A DNA stretch of 64,000 bases. Source: Somniosus microcephalus (taxonomy: Eukaryota). The DNA is taken from assembly GCA_052327205.1 (NCBI GenBank), contig CM126220.1:10974001-11038000 (forward strand), given 5' to 3'. Made by a program: the position numbers and the translations under genes. Below, piece after piece: positions 22,871-54,837 of this stretch. Below the pieces are notes generated by a model. The model was not told the DNA's origin, ran no database searches, and saw nothing but the letters and a program-made list of their open reading frames with translations. Positions within the stretch are counted from its first letter, which is position 1. Each line of letters starts with the position of its first letter.

Positions 22871-25362
22871 GTATTTTTTATTATTGCTGGCTTTCCTTTC
22901 TTTCTTTCTGACCTTTGCTGGTTTTTCTCTTCCCTTTCTTTTCTTTCTGTCAATCGTGAAGTACAAGTCACCTGAAGAAAGGAAAGTGCATAGTCAAGCA
23001 AGAAGGGCACGCAAGAGCTTCACTGAGGGCCGACTGGGATTGCCCCTTTTATATAAAGAAGGGCAATCGAGCTATCCTTGTCCATGCCTTGTTCCACCAT
23101 GAGATATTTTAAGGCACCTAATGAGATGTAGACTTTATAAAACAAAACACTTTGGCATTTGGGAGTGAGTACAGGTTGGCTGGGATCCCCCAATGCTCCA
23201 TACTAAGCTAATGTGTCAAGAACATTGTATAACACTAGTAAAAAAAAACGTTGTTCCAACTTCGCTCAGCAAATGTTCACACCAATGCTCCGTCTTTTTA
23301 AAATCCAAAACTGAAGCTTGGCTATAAATTTAAATTGCCATAAGAAAAGATCTTCTTCGGATTCCATTTTACACTCCAAGCACAATTTACACTTAATTCC
23401 ATGAGAGAGAAAATAGGGAATGCATTATTGTTTAATACTCTACAAATTATTTTATTATATTGTGACGTTTTAAGCCGTGTATTTGATTCAGAACATTTAA
23501 CTTTATCACGAAGCAGCAGCTGGCTGGTGCTACCACAACGGCTGAGTTCCTGAGAAAACTTCTACAGCGGCCGCTAAATAAACCATGAGGCACTAGCAGC
23601 TGTCAGGAAAATTGTAAGAGGCCCTTAACCAAGACACATGGATGTTTATAATTCACAGTTTGCAATTGTTGTCACCAGAGATTTGTATTTCCTCTTTGCA
23701 GGGGAAAAAAGGAAGGATAAAATTGGTACCATAACAGATACAGACTTTCCTTGTTTGAAAGATGGGATCCTATTATTTACTTAAGGAAATAGCTGGAGAT
23801 TTATTAATAACCTCTGGCAAGTGAAATAGCTTTAGTGATTTCCATATGTGACCTGGTCTGCAGTCCTCTTGGCTGATTGAGCATGCAGCTTGAACCAAGG
23901 ATCTGACCTTGCTTGTCTGAAGTGCTGTTGGTAGACTCCCAAATGTGGAGGCTAGCAAAACAAGTAATTTAACACTTTCAATTCGAGACACACAGCATCT
24001 TTACAAGGATGTGCGTTACAGATAGTTTAAAGTTACTGTAGTAATTGCAAAGGAAACTGCATAATAAGAGAGTGCGCCTTTTGTCCTACACAGATTGGAT
24101 TTAGAAAGTACCAGAAATCAGTTAACAGCAGACTCCGTTTGTTATTGGCCTTGGCGTATAGTTTGATGGTATTTCATATGATTTCAAAGCAACATTCCTG
24201 CTTTGCTCAGGAAAAGTACACAATGGTGCATGATTTATTCCTTTTGCTGCGATCTGCGGAGGACTTTAATTAATGGTTACCGTCCCGCATCTGAAGTCCC
24301 CGCAGGAGATGTTGACAAGTGTACGGAAGCTGCTTCCATATTTAGTGTACTTTTAGGTGTCAAAAATTGACCATGTCGCATCATTTCAAAGTTTACATTC
24401 TGTGCATTTGATTGGCTGAAATGCACCCTTTAAAACTGGTGATGTGCTTTAGAAAAGCTAGCTTTTTGATGGTTGCTTCCTGCCTCCAGTATAGAGATTC
24501 AGGAAGAAGAGGGTAACTGAAAAATGTATGAAGATTTTTTTTGTGAAAAGGTTATATAGAAAAATAGTTAGAAAAAAACCCTAAAATGTGATTTTTAAAA
24601 AGCACGAGATAATGAGGGAGCACGAGTGGAGGGGAGAGCAGTTAAGTGATTATTATTTTAATTGTATTTTAACTCCTGAAATTGCAACTTTTTATTACTC
24701 TATTAATACTACTTTTAACATCCCAAAGCATACAAAATCGTCTGGCTGGAGAGAGAGAAATTTTACTGCATCTGCTTGCAGTCCAAGAGTTAATATTGGC
24801 ACCTAGTTCTTTTGCATATACTGTATTGTGTTTTAGTGTACCACACTCCAAATTCAGCAACAATATATTAGTCTTGACAGTTTGTAACTTAACTTTATTT
24901 TCTCTCTCTCACCTCCCAAAGTATCAGATGGCTGAAATATGTGATTGCAGTGACGGTGGTATATTGGCATCATATAAAAGCTGGAATCCTTCATGCTGCC
25001 GTTTGCACATGAAGGATTCAGTGTGACTTGTTCTGCTCACTAAAATGAAGGATGGAACATTCTCCATTTATCAAGCGTACTTGGGTCAGTTATAGTAGGG
25101 GTGTTCAACCAATTGGAGCAATGGCTGGATCCATGAATCACAACGTGTAAGTAGGCATATGAGTGAAAGCCTTTGAGTCAGGCAGAATCTTGATGAACAC
25201 CACATCCAATTACCAATTTATTTTCCATTTTTTGGAGTCTTTTTGGATCACATCACTTCTACCTCCTTTTCTCCTCTTCCACCCTCTTTCTTTCTCGTTT
25301 ATTCTTTCTCATTCTTTTTTATTCTTTCTCTCACCTCCCTCTCTTTGACTCTCCAATTTCTC

Positions 25363-26791
25363 CAAAAAGGGTGGTAGAGAGAAAATGGGGAATTACAGAC
25401 CGGTAAGCCTGACATCGGTAGTGGGGAAAATACTACAGTCTATTATAAAGGATGTAATAGCAGAGCACTTGGAAAAAAGTGACCGGATCGGACAAAGTCA
25501 ACATGGATTTACAAAAGGTAAATCGTGCTTGACTAATCTACTGGAATTTTTTGAGGATGTAACTGGTAAAATAGATAAGGGAGAACCAGTGGATGTGGTG
25601 TATTTGGATTTTCAAAAGGCTTTCGATAAGGTCCCGCATAAGAGATTAGCTTGTAAAATTAAGGCACATGGGATTGGGGGCAAGGTATTGACTTGGATAG
25701 AGAACTGGTTGGCAGACAGAAAGCAAAGAGTTGGAATAAACGGCTCTTTTTCCGAGTGGCAGGCAGTGACTAGTGGGATACCGCAGGGATCGGTCCTTGG
25801 ACCCCAGCTATTCACAATATATATTAATGATCTGGACGAGGGAACTAGATGTAATATCTCCAAGTTTGCAGATGACACAAAGCTGGGTGGGTGTGTGTGC
25901 TGTGAGGAGGATGCCGAGAAACTTCAGTATGATTTGGACAGGTTGGGTGAGTGGGCAGAAGCATGGCAGATGCAATATAACGTGGATAAATACGAGGTTA
26001 TCCACTTTGGTGTCAAAAACAGGAAGGCAGATTATTATCTGAATGGCAATAGATTGGGAGAAGGGGAAGTGCAATGAGACCTGGGCGTCCTTGTGCACCA
26101 GTCGCTGAAAGTAAGCATGCAGGTGCAGCAGGCGGTTAAAAAGGCAAATGGTATGTAGGCCTTCGTAGCGAGAGGGTTTGAGTACAGGAACAAGGATGTC
26201 TTGCTGCAGTTGTACAGGGCCTTGGTGAGACCACATCGGGAGTATTGTGTGCAGTTTTGGTCGCCTTATCTGAGGAAGGATGTTCTTGCCATGGAAGGAG
26301 TGCAGCGAAGATTCACCAGGCTGATACCTGGGATGGCAGGAATGACGTATGAGGAGAGATTGGGTCAATTGGGCTTGTACTCGCTGGAGTTTAGAAGAAT
26401 GAGAGGGGATCTCATCGAAACTTATAAAATTCTAACAGGATTAGACAGACTAGATGCTGGAAGGATGTTCCCGATGTTCGGGGAGTCCAGAACCAGGGGT
26501 CATAGTCTAAGGATAAGGGGTAAGCCATTTAGGACAGAAATGAGGAGGAATTTCTTCACCCAGAGAGTGGTGAACCTGTGGAATTCTCTACCACAGAAGG
26601 CAGTTGAGGCCAATTCATTAAATATATTCAAGAAGGAGTTAGATATATTTCTTAAGGCTAAATGGATCAAGGGATATGAGGAGAAGGCAGGGACAGGGTA
26701 CTGAATTTGGATGATCAGCCATGATCCCATTGAGTGGTGGAGCAGGCTCGAGGGGCTGAATGGCCTACTCCTGCTCCTATCTTCTATGTTT
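25363..26791 (+). mobile_element. CR1 LINE, 5'-truncated, 1.4 kb, RT domain with premature stops
   Basis: ORFs 25385-26077 (GNYRPVSLTS…QHGF…YLDFQKAFD…GIPQGSVLGP…SKFADDTKL) and 26201-26704 are in one frame broken by TGA at 26075 and TAG at 26156; CR1 3' UTR follows. Confidence 0.97.
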
Positions 26792-37430: not shown

Positions 37431-39201
37431 ATATGTAGGTCCCTTACAGTCAGAAATGGGAGAATTTATAATGGGGCACAAGGAAATGGCAGAGCAATTA
37501 AACAAATACTTTGGTTCTATCTTCACTGAAGAGGACACAAATAACTTCCCAGAAATGCTAGGAACCAAGGGTCGAGTGAGAAGGAGGAATTAAAGGAAAT
37601 TAGTATTAGTAAAAAAAAATAGTGCTGGAGAAATTAATGGGACTGAAAGCTGATAAATCCCCAGAACTTGATAATCTGCATCCCAGAGTACTAAAAGAGG
37701 TAGCCATTGAAATAGTGGATGCATTGGTTGTCATCTTCCAAAATCCTATAGATTATAGAACAGTTCCTGCAGATTGGAGGGTGGCGAATGTAACCCCACT
37801 ATTTAAAAAAGGAGGGATAGAGAAAACAGGGAACTACAGACTGGTTAGCCTAACATCAGTTGTAGGGAAAATGCTAGAGTCTATTATAAAAGATGTGATA
37901 ACAGGACACTTAGAAAATATCAACGGAATTAGACAAAGTCAGCATGGATTTATGAAAGGGAAATCGTGTTTGACAAACCTACTGGAGTTTTTTGAGGATG
38001 TAACTGGTAGAATAGACAAGGGAGGACCAGTGGATGTGGTGTATTTGGATTTTCAGAAGGTCTTTGATAAAGTCCCACATAAGAGGTTAGTGTGCAAAAT
38101 TAAAGCACATGGGATTGGGGTTAATATACTTGCATGGATTGAAAATTGGTTAACAGACAGAAAACAGAGTAGGAATAACTGGGTCTATTTCGGGGTGGCA
38201 GGCAGTGACTAGTGGGGTACTGCAGGGATCAGTGCTTGGGCCCTAGCTATTCACAATATATATCAATGATTTGAATGAGGAACCAAATGTAATATTTCCA
38301 AGTTTGCCGACGACACAAAACTAGGTGGGATTGAGTTGTGAGGAGGATGCAAAGAGGCTTCAAGGCGATTTAGACAAGTTGAGTGAGTGGGCAAATACAT
38401 GGCAGATGCAGCATAACATGGATAAATGTGAAGTTATCCACTTCGGTAGGAAAAACAGAAAGGCAGAGTATTATTTAAATGGTGATAGATTGGGAAATGT
38501 TGATGTACAAAGGGACCTGGGTGTCCTTGTACACCAGTCACTGAAAGCAAACATGCAGGTGCAGCAAGCAGTTAGGCAGGCAAATGGTATGTTGGCCTTC
38601 ATTGCAAGAGGATTTGAGTACAGAAGCAAGGATGTCTTACTGCAGTTATACAGGGCCTTGGTGAGACCACACCTGGAGTACTGTGTGATATACTTGCCAT
38701 AGAGGGAGTGCAGCGAAGGTTCACCAGACTGATTCCTGGGATGGCAGGACTGTCGTACGAGGAGAGATTGGGTCGACTAGGTCTGTATTCACTAGAGTTT
38801 AGAAGAATGAGAGGGGATCTCGTGGAAACGTATAAAATTCTGACAGGGCTAGACAGACTGGATGCAGGGAGGATGTTTCCCCTGGCTAGGGGGTGTAGAA
38901 CAAGGGGTCACAGTCTCAGGATACGGGGTAGGACATTTAGGACTGAGATGAGGAGAAATTTCTTCACTCGGAGGGTGATGAACCTGTGGAATTCTCTACC
39001 ACAGAAGGCTGTGGAGGCCAAGTCACTGAATATATTTAAGAAGGAGATAGATAGATTTCTAGACACAAAAGGCATCAAGGGGCATGGGGAGAGATCAGGA
39101 ATATGGTATTGAGATAGAGGATCAGCCATGATCATATTGAATGGTGGAGCAGGCTCGAAGGGCCGAATGGCCTACTTCTGCTCCTATTTTTCTATGTTTC
39201 T
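37431..39201 (+). mobile_element. CR1 LINE, 5'-truncated, 1.77 kb
   Basis: ORF2 fragments 37622-38212, 38325-38702 and 38708-39112 (DWRVANVTPLFKKG…QHGFMKGKSCLTNLLEFF…RRMRGDL…) with frameshifts, plus 3' UTR. Confidence 0.97.
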
Positions 39202-50320: not shown

Positions 50321-51560
50321 GTCGGGCACAAACAAAATTCACCGTCAATAAACACTTTAATATCATAATTACTAAAGTTTTCAGTAGCTATGTGACCAAC
50401 AGTTAGAACTGTGGGGTTAGAACATATTAGTTGGAATATCATGGCCCTTAAATTCCTGGCCTTGGGAGGGCAGAACTGGGGCATACACAGGGTGTGGGAG
50501 GCCAGATTCCTGCCAGTTGCACCTGTCTTGTGACCAACCTAAAGTATGATGCAGGCATACTTATCGTAGAAAGGTGAAACTGGGGCCCACAATGCCATTT
50601 CCCAGGAGCACCAGGAGATTTAAGGTGTTATTTTTTTTTTTAATGTTCAGCTGCAATGTCCCAGCCCTCGACAGAGCAGAAAAAGTGTTGCAACAATACT
50701 TCTGGCCGCCCATAGGCAGGCACAGAGGGAGCACCATAAATGGCACCGATATCCACCCCCTAAACAACCCCATCCCCGGGATTTGCAACTCGTGGGTATT
50801 TTGCGAGCCCTAGCAATCTGCCTCACGAAGCACAAATAACACAGTTCTACCTGTGCTAGTATTTCCTTGCTTGTTGGTTTGTCCTGTTTGAACTTCATGG
50901 ACCTGGACTTTTGCAAAGGGCTGTTCTTAATGCTATTTGCTCATTGATGGATAAATCCTAAATCCTGAATCTGAATGCCAGGTATCAGCAGCTTCAGATG
51001 TATGCAGATTAATGAGAACATGGATTTAAACTTCACATGTTCCTGAGTTACGGTTATCAAACCATAAACCAAAAGCAGTTCATGGTTAGTCGTTCTGATG
51101 CTCATCCACCGTAGCAGTGTTTCTGTCCACTGCTTCACATTGTCTGTGTTGTGTTCCAGACTATCCATGGTCTCCCCCTTGTTTCCTGATTTTTCTTTTG
51201 AGCTGTTATACTGCTCAAGATTGCAAGAAAATTATGGGGCTAATTTAGAATTGATCTAACCCCAGCATCCAAAATACTACTTATTCACAGATTAAAAAAT
51301 AATTATAACTTTAGCCAATAGATTAATTTTTATAAACAAACAAAAAAAATGAGTACAGTAATGGGGGTTTGGCTGCTTGTTGTATTCTATTTATAACCAT
51401 CAGGAAAGACTGAACAGACTGAGGCTCTTTTCGCTTTTTTAGAAAACGGCTGAGGGGTGACCTAATAGAGTTCTTTAAAAATATGACGGTGTTTTATAGG
51501 GTAGACCTAGCAAAGACGTTTCCACGTGCGGGGGAGTCCAGAACTCGGTGCCATAAATAT

Positions 51561-51588
51561 GGCGGGAGTAACTATGACTCTCTTAAGG
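51561..51588 (+). rRNA. 28-nt fragment of 28S rRNA immediately upstream of the R2 insertion site (not a functional rRNA gene)
   Basis: GGCGGGAGTAACTATGACTCTCTTAAGG is the conserved eukaryotic LSU sequence that normally continues TAGCCAAATGCC. Confidence 0.95.
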
Positions 51589-51874
51589 TGGCCTGGGCTG
51601 GTGAGCTCTCGCAGTTCTACTTTGCGGGTGACTCCCGCGTGGCTTTGGTGAGAGCCCGCTCGGTATTTTGCTGGATTGAGTACTCCCTCATGCTTCCTTG
51701 AGTTGGTCTATCTGTGACTTCTTTAGGCGTTGCAGGGTAATTTCCCTCCCCCCGCGACTCCTGAGAAGTATCCAAGGTTACTAGTAACAGCGAGAATCTG
51801 GGGCTCTATATCGCTGCGAGTTGTACCTCCTAGTGGTCCCGCTGGGCAACACTTAGGTGTTGGCTGAAGCAACT
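51561..51874 (+). ncRNA. HDV-like self-cleaving ribozyme (R2 5' ribozyme), unit 1, apparently intact
   Basis: P1 GGCGGG(51561-66)/CCCGCT(51838-43) with G1.U wobble; P2 AGTTGT(51819-24)/GCAACT(51869-74); P3 ACC/GGT; L3 TCCTAGT; P1.1 CC/GG(51844-45); P4 CAACAC-TTAG-GTGTTG; J4/2 G-C51864-TGAA. Confidence 0.92.
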
Positions 51875-51895
51875 GGCCGAGAACCTCACTTTTTA

Positions 51896-52102
51896 GGTGG
51901 GAAGCAACCAAACCTCTCAACCTCTTCGGAAGTAGAGTGCCGGACCTTCGAGGACCTTTGAGGATCTCAGACCGGTTAGTCCACCGAATGTTGAGAGCCG
52001 CGGTTCGCAACCGTAGCTGCGGTAATCTTGCAGAGCTCTACGCCGCAGTGAGTCGTACCTCTGGGGTCCCACCGGCGGCCTGTGAGGGCAGTTAAACCGA
52101 CT
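51896..52102 (+). ncRNA. HDV-like fold, unit 2 (probably catalytically dead)
   Basis: P1 GGTGGG(51896-901)/CCCACC(52068-73); P2 AGTCG/CGACT; P3 ACC/GGT; GG; P4 GCCT-GTGA-GGGC. L3 is shortened (TCTGG) and T52092 sits at the catalytic-C position. Confidence 0.7.
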
Positions 52103-52123
52103 GGCCGAGAACTCTGCTAAATA

Positions 52124-52255
52124 GGCTGGATTGCAACTGAACTCCGTGCAACTTTGTTGCACTGATGTTGTAATAGCCACGGTGCCTTTGAGTGGTGGGC
52201 CGTGTGCGGGTCGTACCATTCGTGGTCCAGTCGGCGCTTTAAGCCTAACCAACTC
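52124..52255 (+). ncRNA. HDV-like fold, unit 3 (variant)
   Basis: P1 GGCTGG(52124-29)/CCAGTC(52227-32); P3 ACC/GGT; L3 ATTCGT; GG; P4 GCT-TTA-AGC; J4/2 C52245-TAA; imperfect P2 GGGTCG/CAACTC. Confidence 0.65.
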
Positions 52256-52838
52256 AAAAATAACTCAAATATTGGTTGGCGGCAACCATTTCCCCCCCGT
52301 AGGAGGGGTCAAGGAAAAAATTCATTTGACTCGTTGGAGTCAACTGTGAAGAGGCTTCAGTCAATTGCCTCAAGATTCAGTTTGGTCCTACCCGGCTGAA
52401 AGTTCCGCCACTTACAGCTTAATAGGCGTGAATAATGTCACATACCCTGGTACCAACCTAGGACTATCGAATCGGTGTCAAAGGCCAGTCAACGCCGTCT
52501 ACGCCTGGCACAGCGACCCCGGGACGCTCGTTCCAAAGTTGATGATATCGATTAGGGCAGAGGATTGACACCGCTTACTTTGTTAAAGTGTCTGTCAAAT
52601 CCAATGACTGCCCGAGAATCAACTGCCGGAGCCCCACGGGATGGGTATGGCAACCAAATTTACACATCAGATGATGAGGGATGACCATCATACTGAACGG
52701 TACTGGCTCAGTTCACTTACCTTGGTGGAGGCTTTCACGGTTGGTAGACTTGTATGGCCGTCGCAAGATCAGCCCAGTCCTTATAAGATCCTGGTTTTGC
52801 CGGCCACTTTGGTTGTGGTTAGCTGATGGACTTTTGCT

Positions 52839-52913
52839 ACGTGGACGAGCCACGTTAAGACTCAAAACGGACACTCACTTAATGGGGCTTCGGCCCCACG
52901 AGTGTGACAAAAA
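52839..52913 (+). other. R2-type 3' RNA module (pseudoknot + terminal stem-loop + short A tail)
   Basis: ACGTGG-ACGAG-CCACGT hairpin whose loop GAG can pair with CTC (52861-63); AAAA linker; ACACTC/GAGTGT stem enclosing TGGGGC-TTCG-GCCCCA; AAAAA. Confidence 0.75.
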
Positions 52914-54179
52914 TAGTCACTAATAAATCCAATAAATAATTCAGAAGAAACTTCTTTACCCAGAGAGTGGTGAGAATGTGGAACTTGCTACTACAGGTAG
53001 TGGTTGAGGTGAATAGCATAGATGCATTTAAAAGGAAGCTAGATAACTACATGAGGGAGAAAGGAATAGAAGGATATGCAGATAGGATTTGATGAAGAGG
53101 GGTGGGAAGAGGCTCGTGTGGAGCAGAAACACCGGCATAAAGACCTGTTGGACTGAATGGCCTGTTTCTGTGCTGTACATTCTATGTAATTAGCCGGACT
53201 TGGATCAAAAATATGTATGTGTAATGTATTTCAATACTCCACCAAACCATTGATTTCAATTGCCATTGTCAGAGATTTTTTACCCATTACCCTGAAGATC
53301 CACAGGGAGGGATGTATAGGGGAGAAAAGTACCTAAGAGCTCAGAGACAAATAGAAAACTAAGTGATGGGCTGGCGGGAGTGATAACAATTTACTATATT
53401 TTTTCTTGCTCAACACTGATGAAAGTCAGACAAATGGAATACATCGGGTAACAGAAATAAGTTTTATTCTGCTCCCTCCCCAAGAAAAACCCTTTAAAAC
53501 TACAGTTTTTGGGTGATGTGATACTATATACTTTCAGTTTTTACATTTAGATATCCAGGATTAGAATAAAACTATCCATCAATGCTTGCACCCCTCCCAA
53601 CATCAAAACCTATTCTATTACCCTTGCACCTACTTTACTGACTTCTTTGATACTCAGTACACCTGTCCTATAACTATAGAAAAAGTAGGATGTTTACATT
53701 ATAAAAGGAAAGATTGCCTATGTGTGTGCAATAAACGTGTTGGAATTCAATTTCAAGATCCTGATGGCATTCATAAACCAAGAAGTCATCATTAAAACTC
53801 CATGTCTTGATTTATAGCTCACTGGCAAAGGCATCTATTCTATAACTACAATTCAGGCAGCTGTAATTTCAGAACTAGAGGAAGGGAAGTGAATTGACAG
53901 TTGCACAGACAGCGGTGCACAGTCCCTTTAAGAGAAAGAAGCAGTCTGTGTAATCCATCTTTCTTGAATAGATCGGTTCAGTCTGCTCGCTGGCATTACA
54001 CCCTAAGCCACCTTAGGAGGTTGAAAGCGGCAGTTGTCCAGAGCGGCTCCAAAGCTGATTTGGAGGCTTAACAGTAACAAGATTGAGATTACAATGTGCA
54101 GAGGGTATTGCTCTTCGTTCATCATGGGAATTATGGATATCAAGACCTGAGAAAATCATCTTAGCACACAGTTTGCATG

Positions 54180-54237: not shown

Positions 54238-54268
<31 letters not shown>

Positions 54269-54837
54269 CCCGGACAAATGAGCAAAGCAGCTGGGCAGCG
54301 CTGAGAGCCGCTCCGGAGCCCAGCCGCACCGCGCCCGTCTCACACACAAAACACACACACACACAACGGCAGGATTCACTTCATCGGCATTTATATATTT
54401 TGGAAACAAAACCAAAGGAGTAGCGGAGAGGGAGCCCCGAGCTGCTGGCTGACTGTGTGCACCGGGCTTTGCCAAGGTCTCGGAGGAAGCGGCAGCGACG
54501 GGCTCGCTTTCTGGACTGGGCGCCGGTGCTTGGTGCGGTCGGCGGGCAAGTCAGGTTGGTTTCTCTTCGCTCTGGCCGTTTCCGATTTCGTCTGTCTTCC
54601 TCCTCCTCCCCACCCCCCTCTCTCTAGAAAGAAAAAACTGGTATTTTCTTTTTAAAAGCCCGAGAATCCGGCCATATTTTTTTTTTACCAAGACTCATGT
54701 TTTTATGTTACCGCGAAGGGAATAAACGTGCCGGATAATTGTGGATTCCTAGATGGTTCGGGATTACTGCGCTTTTGCTTCTTGGATTGTGAGATTCAGT
54801 GGTTGGTTGTATCTAGGGAAATAACTCCCCGGTGTTG
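54180..54837 (+). promoter_or_regulatory. CpG island; candidate promoter and non-coding first exon
   Basis: Non-repetitive, CpG-dense, GC-rich segment ending at a donor-like TTG|GTAAGA (54838); its ATGs open only short ORFs. Gene not identified. Confidence 0.6.
54238..54365. repeat. (TG)13 and interrupted (CA)n microsatellites in inverted arrangement
   Basis: (TG)n at 54238-54263 and (CA)n at 54341-54365. Confidence 0.85.

Follow-up and report, generated by a model that had tools for sequence, protein, structure and literature searches.

The closest described systems are the R2 SIDEs of Drosophila. In the sections of PMC3414825 available to us, these have no ORF, an HDV-like ribozyme at the 5' end, an R2-like 3' end and a middle unlike R2, and they reside at the R2 site of the 28S gene and need an autonomous R2. 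An element whose family resembles them in each of these respects was identified in the window, by which we mean the whole stretch of 64,000 nucleotides of shark DNA that was analyzed here. The first fold of this element (unit 1) also resembles the R2 5' ribozymes, as the accessible text of PMC3774820 describes them, in having a P1 formed with 28S at -28, a P1 of 6 bp, a P2 of at least 5 bp, the L3 signature, the catalytic C and a long J1/2. Within the same genome, autonomous R2 copies (L054, L058, L064 and L065) have a homologous core, J1/2 stem and 3' tail.

Anatomy of the element and its insertion site

Because it begins with a 28S head, ends with an R2 3' tail, has no ORF and has relatives at the R2 site, we classify the element as an R2 SIDE in a vertebrate genome (Table 1). 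The longest stop-to-stop frame within 51561-52913 encodes 115 aa, and the head is identical at 28/28 positions to the 28S flank of rDNA-resident copies. The original prediction, made from the letters of the window, had recognized the link to R2 but missed that this is a non-autonomous SIDE with relatives in 28S rDNA. The motifs it quoted were found where it had placed them, namely the P1 5' strands (from 51561, 51896 and 52124), the cores of units 1 and 2 exactly, the core of unit 3 after refinement to 52209-52254, and the 13-mer common to units 1 and 2 (51872 and 52100).

Table 1. Coordinates of the element, its folds and its target in the window
Feature	Position	Strand	Remarks
Whole element	51561..52913	+	R2 SIDE of 1,353 nt without an ORF; inserted off target; target site not duplicated
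Target, upstream half	51423..51560	+	3' part of a presumably CR1-like LINE, split by the insertion
28S rRNA head, 28 nt	51561..51588	+	equals -28 to -1 of the R2 site
Unit 1 P1 5' strand	51561..51566	+	inside the 28S head; predicted cut before G51561
Unit 1 J1/2 peripheral hairpin	51788..51816	+	just upstream of P2
Unit 1 core	51819..51874	+	P2; P3; L3 UCCUAGU, 51828-51834; P1', 51838-51843; GG, 51844-51845; P4; catalytic C, 51864
Unit 2 P1 5' strand	51896..51901	+	diverged copy of the start of the 28S head
Unit 2 core, likely disarmed	52051..52102	+	L3 of 5 nt (UCUGG, 52060-52064); U 52092 at the catalytic-C position; P1, P2 and P3 paired
Unit 3 P1 5' strand	52124..52129	+	placed by spacer alignment with the 28S head
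Unit 3 core, likely disarmed	52209..52254	+	L3 AUUCGU; U20 absent; P4 short; P3 closed into a hairpin with a UUCG cap
Non-coding body of the three-fold subfamily	52255..52655	+	between unit 3 and the chimeric 3' segment
3' segment from the two-fold subfamily	52656..52913	+	window copy is a chimera
R2 3' tail	52841..52913	+	matches the 3' ends of ORF-bearing R2 copies, some in 28S, at 84-94% over 72-78 nt
Target, downstream half	52914..53092	+	presumably CR1-like; first bases TAGT (28S target: TAGC)

The interrupted repeat is one that we take to be CR1-like from its translation. An empty site was present in reads and contigs, in which the flank ending at 51560 is joined to 52914 with about 3 to 4 bases (AAG) between them; by this comparison the insertion replaced some 3 to 4 target bases and duplicated none.

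The window copy is a mosaic of two subfamilies. Its last ~250 nt are 93-98% identical to six copies with two folds, versus 85-92% to four copies with three folds, and its 5' part is 58-60% identical to two-fold copies, versus 84-92% to three-fold copies. The body at 52255-52655 showed no significant likeness to the R2 5' UTR or ORF (z mostly <2.5; zero blastn matches). The tail is probably the end at which the R2 protein binds and primes, to judge from its likeness to the 3' ends of R2. By eye, the first hairpin of the tail (window 52841-52870; L113:1846-1875) differs between subfamilies by a compensated change, and pairing of its loop with downstream sequence could form a pseudoknot.

Elsewhere in the window, RT-domain fragments of other LINEs (PF00078) were observed at 25349-26074 and 37613-38209. 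A Pfam scan of eight long window frames returned these two RT fragments and six frames without a family, and identified no host gene. A TG/CA microsatellite hairpin at 54238-54365 gave a weak, likely spurious match to mir-466.

Genomic distribution, target choice and 5' starts

A DNA search of the same genome returned at least 66 matches to the family (40 of 571 candidates scored), and exact-pattern searches gave 11, 63, 54 and 15 matches, with 0 for reversed controls. Thirty-seven family loci, picked by eye, have 28S sequence on both sides at the canonical R2 site; all represent the two-fold subfamily or variants of it, and such copies are likely to multiply together with their rDNA units. 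The three-fold subfamily of the window was not found in rDNA, all 11 of its copies being dispersed. Copy counts are not independent here, since seven of these 11 (L004-L010) derive from a single insertion that was duplicated along with the flanking sequence. Contigs of two organisms, one of them perhaps the source of the window itself, contain the SIDE family. A search for RNA records with the element listed none, and in two RNA runs of a related organism, depth over the element body was at most 3.6, too little for RNA ends to be seen; neither result bears on expression.

Analysis of 75 loci with a profile of the core showed that SIDE copies hold two to five folds: the window's subfamily has three, as do several older copies, a larger subfamily has two and L040 has five. 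The last is a dispersed SIDE (L040:2300-3290, minus strand) in which the three middle folds have P1 strands of all G and all C. The same profile found one core each in four ORF-bearing copies of R2 (L054, which lies in 28S, L058, L064 and L065), where the core is followed by the ORF; the statement in the original prediction that R2 elements carry a single ribozyme thus holds for 4/4 autonomous copies in this genome. The first units of four other SIDE copies were 72-83% identical to R2 cores by blastn, and window unit 1 can be aligned to the R2 core but itself gave no blastn match.

The R2 in L054 has an RT domain and is broken by stops, while L057 has a frame of 1,125 aa; Pfam analysis of the C-terminal pieces of R2 found no family. 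ORF-bearing R2 copies also lie outside rDNA (L049-L065; at least 48 matches, 40 of 162 candidates scored), some of them with a 28S head, and these many copies indicate that the autonomous R2 of this genome has relaxed specificity. In L044/L045, a 5'-truncated R2 shares an rDNA unit with an R2 3' end and a 28S segment that are rearranged and in part duplicated.

Dispersed SIDE copies show a target preference. TAG directly follows the 3' end in 21 of the 25 dispersed copies that were parsed (29 were given; one miss is a mis-parse), and the same position in the CR1-like repeat is occupied in 7/25, where the local sequence resembles the 28S target. This position is a natural off-target hot spot of R2-type insertion. 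Insertions at it (window 51545-51560/52914-52921, L013, L014, L033, L039, L093, L096 and L031) are separate events and come from different subfamilies. The TAG junctions, the lack of target duplication and the 5' truncations agree with mobilization of the SIDE by the R2 protein through TPRT, which we infer to be its probable route. Tandem elements, including a SIDE 3' end fused to the 5' end of an autonomous R2, were observed in L058:5100-5480 (minus strand), L087, L031 and L032, and the SIDE-R2 junctions among them are as expected from template jumps.

The 5' ends of dispersed copies bear on cleavage by the first fold. Among 29 headed dispersed insertions (30 rows examined, one mis-anchored row dropped), the start lies exactly at -28 in 16 (15 determined by script and L140 by eye), none of which carries the 28S base at -29; in the remaining 13 it falls between -27 and -15 (L107 judged by eye). 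In PMC3774820, so far as its accessible text goes, -28 is the commonest R2 ribozyme cut site. These starts point, indirectly, to cutting by the first fold in vivo. Tandem duplications of the 28S head were seen at the 5' junctions of L054 (3893-3930), L110, L116-L122 and L125-L128, and these match the -28 cut in the portion of PMC3774820 available.

Clean starts at the predicted internal cuts, which efficient cutting by internal folds should produce, were sought in the same way, and none was found among the 11, 54 and 15 pattern matches. All 11 matches of the pattern specific to the window's subfamily retain unit 1. Of the 15 matches of another pattern, 14 have upstream units; the other, L150, starts within ~3 nt of the unit-3 cut site and seems to include bases upstream of it. 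Copies without unit 1 among the 54 matches of a further pattern have their 5' ends either ~21 or 10 nt ahead of the site or within J1/2. A single-fold junction, in which a first core would run directly into the terminal context, was searched for as an exact pattern and gave 0 matches; both headed copies with a single core contain the start of a second unit.

Active-site bases and stem pairing in first and internal folds

The core profile gave units 1, 2 and 3 scores of 49.9, 44.7 and 34.0 bits, the next best score in the 64-kb window being 3.6 bits, although the profile was seeded from six cores of which three are the window's own, and is circular for those three. It found 0 matches in 280,470 bases of reversed loci, a control that speaks to background only, because the window's three cores are among its seeds. 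An Rfam scan returned no HDV-family match at E<=1; since it also missed the autonomous R2 core in L054, that test is insensitive here. On inspection of its sequence, unit 1 can form a nested double pseudoknot of P1, P1.1, P2, P3 and P4. Minimum-free-energy folding of the whole region, a method that cannot show pseudoknots, gave a z of -2.5 on 20 shuffles.

The original prediction described HDV-like folds in all three units. Their helices are indeed present, but L3 is shortened and lacks a UCC start in units 2 and 3, and unit 2 has U at the position of the catalytic C. P1.1, the pairing of CC in L3 with GG, is absent from both units, as is an L3 of 7-8 nt with U20 and G25. Unit 1 keeps U20, C21-C22, G25, the GG partner and C75. 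Across 155 parsed cores (two unparsed cores and three duplicates left out), L3 starts with UCC in 65/65 first-type cores and 4/4 autonomous R2 cores and in 0/86 internal-type cores, and CC occurs in L3 of none of the 86. Because first-type cores are partly defined by L3, the count by position is the fair one: by position alone, UCC occurs in no internal core, and the five leading cores without it come from copies that are truncated or carry deletions. By eye, 61 of the 65 first-type cores have C75. Position 75 is U in nine middle units from eight separate insertions, window unit 2 included, and window unit 3 retains C75 (by eye) and lacks U20.

In the available parts of PMC13635239, C75U and changes of G25 abolish or strongly lower cleavage by HDV ribozymes, and an R2 ribozyme with changes in L3 was inactive in PMC3774820, again in the text accessible to us. 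Loss of UCC is no proof of inactivity, because fast cleavage is possible in one ribozyme whose P1.1 is non-canonical (PMC13635239, same sections). These observations suggest that only the first fold is likely to cut still and that window units 2 and 3 are probably disarmed; catalytic states are, here and below, predictions from sequence. Folding of P4 over G38/G39 and C75 was considered as a marker of live and disarmed folds and was rejected, as first units and R2 show it too. Two autonomous R2 cores also have CC at 75-76.

Alternatively, all folds may cut, the internal ones being slower ribozymes that give nested 5' ends, excise pieces of 160-330 nt (which could circularize) or provide back-up release if 5' truncation removes unit 1. 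Most terminal units keep C75, and 32/86 internal cores, mostly of the rDNA-resident subfamily, keep U20, G25 and C75, none of them with a full 3-bp P3. By inspection, P1' of the two-fold subfamily pairs with the 28S head at 6/6 positions (L087). Headed copies without a first-type core exist (L141 and the first elements of L087 and L031), and the fast ribozyme cited above tolerates a non-canonical P1.1. However, the copies without unit 1 are singletons that were not amplified, window unit 2 carries C75U, the L3 loop of unit 3 is closed and U20 is missing there, and neither UCC among the internal cores nor a clean start at an internal cut was observed. We consider it improbable that all folds cut, and these same results do not support the original prediction of three working ribozymes, which placed cuts before G51896 and G52124 as well.

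The original prediction held that selection has maintained the duplicated folds, whose strands changed in sequence but stayed paired. Internal P1 strands were placed with an alignment of the spacers built without P1'; because these strands align under the start of the 28S head, each unit duplicates the head along with the ribozyme. P1 pairs were counted by script from this alignment, since the MAFFT alignment A2, in which seven rows with a short P4 are also misaligned, misregistered P1. At P1 positions 3-4, 17/22 cells over 11 lineages were paired versus 11.4 on permutation (p=0.002), and 35/42 over 21 types versus 25.4 on permutation, by a control that ignores relatedness. All four Watson-Crick pair types occur at position 4, and position 3 is mismatched in 5/21 types. 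For P2, two P3 pairs, P4 and the J1/2 stem in 30 internal units, 88.5% of 599 cells were paired versus 83.3% in shuffles, which likewise ignore relatedness; 0/500 shuffles reached the observed value, a slid control gave 22-35%, and 9/21 of these pairs had changed on both sides. Covariation across family copies, assessed in this way, exceeds the shuffles, and selection is likely to have kept the duplicated helices.

Internal P2 was 95% paired across the 30 units with a mean column identity of 57%. As a correction to the original prediction, the 3' strand of P2 in unit 3 is damaged (CAACT versus CGACT in the family; 52249 and 52251), in the window copy alone and amounting to one mismatch. The internal J1/2 stem was 97.2% paired, with 3/6 pairs changed on both sides, and alignments showed that a stem equivalent to the unit 1 J1/2 hairpin precedes every core as well as the autonomous R2 core. 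A stem adjoining P2 activates large HDV-like ribozymes, according to the portion of PMC4908430 available.

Phylogenetic analysis of 59 units set first units apart from all others (support 94) and grouped terminal units (88), with low support for middle units (41-68) among the nodes listed. Because the tree separates first and terminal units, the tandem duplications likely predate the subfamilies; later changes in fold number occurred by exchange in L110, L087 and L040. A reading of the last unit as the native R2 ribozyme, still in its former context, was not supported, z exceeding 3 in 2/30 comparisons, one of which involved a first unit.

This history would also fit a series of fossils, in which each internal fold was once a working 5' ribozyme whose P1 co-evolved at that time, was later displaced by a unit added in front of it and now decays without function. 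A shift of internal P1 with compensation has been published for the P1 strand alone (PMC3774820, in the text available), L3 is highly variable in internal units (27 types in 86), P1 is mismatched in L012u2, L033u2, L034u2 and L031u2, and tree support among middle units is low. Decay without function is, however, difficult to reconcile with the sister internal units L077u2 and L109u2 (support 91), which both lack UCC and differ by a compensated P1 pair, or with the pairing of P2 and the J1/2 stem across internal units of such low identity. Nor were single-fold junctions found, although unit number does change by exchange. We regard the fossil explanation as unlikely.

Stems could instead be kept only as insulation, so that duplicated strands do not mispair with unit 1, and have no positive role. 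Internal P1 strands, as copies of the 28S head, could compete for P1' of unit 1, and a paired partner would neutralize them. By inspection, however, the unit 2 P1 strand still pairs with unit 1 P1' at 6/6 positions (two G-U), and because of this the stems of units 1 and 2 are not orthogonal. Deletion of a unit would be simpler, yet no unit was found deleted as such. Insulation alone thus seems very improbable.

Proposed mechanism and comparison with known systems

We favor, with a probability of about two in three, a mechanism in which Pol I co-transcription, release by the first fold and R2 TPRT in trans act on an RNA whose internal folds are disarmed yet kept as structure. Master copies in rDNA would be co-transcribed with rRNA, and the first fold would pair with 28S at -28 and free the RNA by cutting. 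R2 protein acting in trans would then bind the 3' tail and copy the RNA into 28S or into look-alike TAAGR/TAG sites, such as the one in the CR1-like repeat. Folds two and three would be old tandem duplicates of head and ribozyme that lost L3/P1.1, U20 or C75 while P1, P2, P4 and the J1/2 stem changed in compensated pairs; the active-site bases may have been lost because an active internal ribozyme would cut the template. Internal folds would most likely now be compact non-catalytic modules that stabilize the ORF-less RNA or help to load R2 protein, and this role is the weakest step of the mechanism. The accessible text of PMC11331408 proposes that the fold protects templates and argues for a structural role of the R2 5' ribozyme fold, yet the dead mutant did badly: a fold inactivated by a C-to-A change and placed 5' in PRINT templates was severely inhibitory, so that a dead fold need not protect.

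That live and disarmed folds should be stacked and maintained by selection was unexpected. It is possible, and we put it forward tentatively, that the HDV fold has been taken over as a non-catalytic module that can be repeated, such that each extra disarmed fold behind the live one would make the RNA of this R2 parasite a better template or a better competitor for R2 protein. In this family, live and disarmed folds occur naturally within a single RNA, in two to five copies and with compensated stems, so a role of the fold beyond cutting is directly testable. If true, the reading of the internal folds as disarmed modules would provide a natural case in which selection acts on an HDV fold for its structure alone, and would supply a rule for designing templates in R2-based gene insertion. 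Dispersed copies also preserve a record of where the RNA was cut in vivo and of the relaxed TAG preference of a vertebrate R2 protein, and this preference, with its hot spot in the CR1-like repeat, bears on off-target risk in R2-based gene insertion.

In the mostly open-access literature searched, the text covered describes no R2 or SIDE with several ribozyme folds. No vertebrate R2 SIDE appears in the portions available of the sources searched, which include PMC3774820, PMC3414825, PMC5035012, PMC13188248, PMC5786205, PMC6765202 and PMC13580325. R2 SIDEs, which in that literature come only from insects, are here extended to a vertebrate genome. Among published R2s of cartilaginous fish, no second core was seen by eye in the first 400 letters of 12 of the 15 rows of Table S2 in PMC13188248. 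The duplication described in the accessible part of PMC3774820 is of the 28S/P1 strand only and not of a whole ribozyme, unlike that in the shark family.

Compared with the Drosophila SIDE, as the available sections of PMC3414825 present it, the shark family differs in its vertebrate host, in its length of ~1.3-1.4 kb versus 529 bp and in having two to five folds rather than one. It differs further in its internal folds without active-site bases, in a predicted cut at -28 inside 28S, in its many copies outside rDNA and in its several old subfamilies and chimeras. Like the R2NS families (PMC5035012, in the text available), it includes R2-type elements outside rDNA; unlike them, it is non-autonomous and has kept 28S targeting (37 loci) beside relaxed TAG sites. 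More than one ribozyme motif per transcript is also found in retrozymes and in Penelope-like elements with repeated hammerheads, but in the sections of PMC6765202 available these are hammerheads in terminal repeats that are meant to cut, whereas the shark family uses the HDV fold and its internal copies are apparently disarmed.
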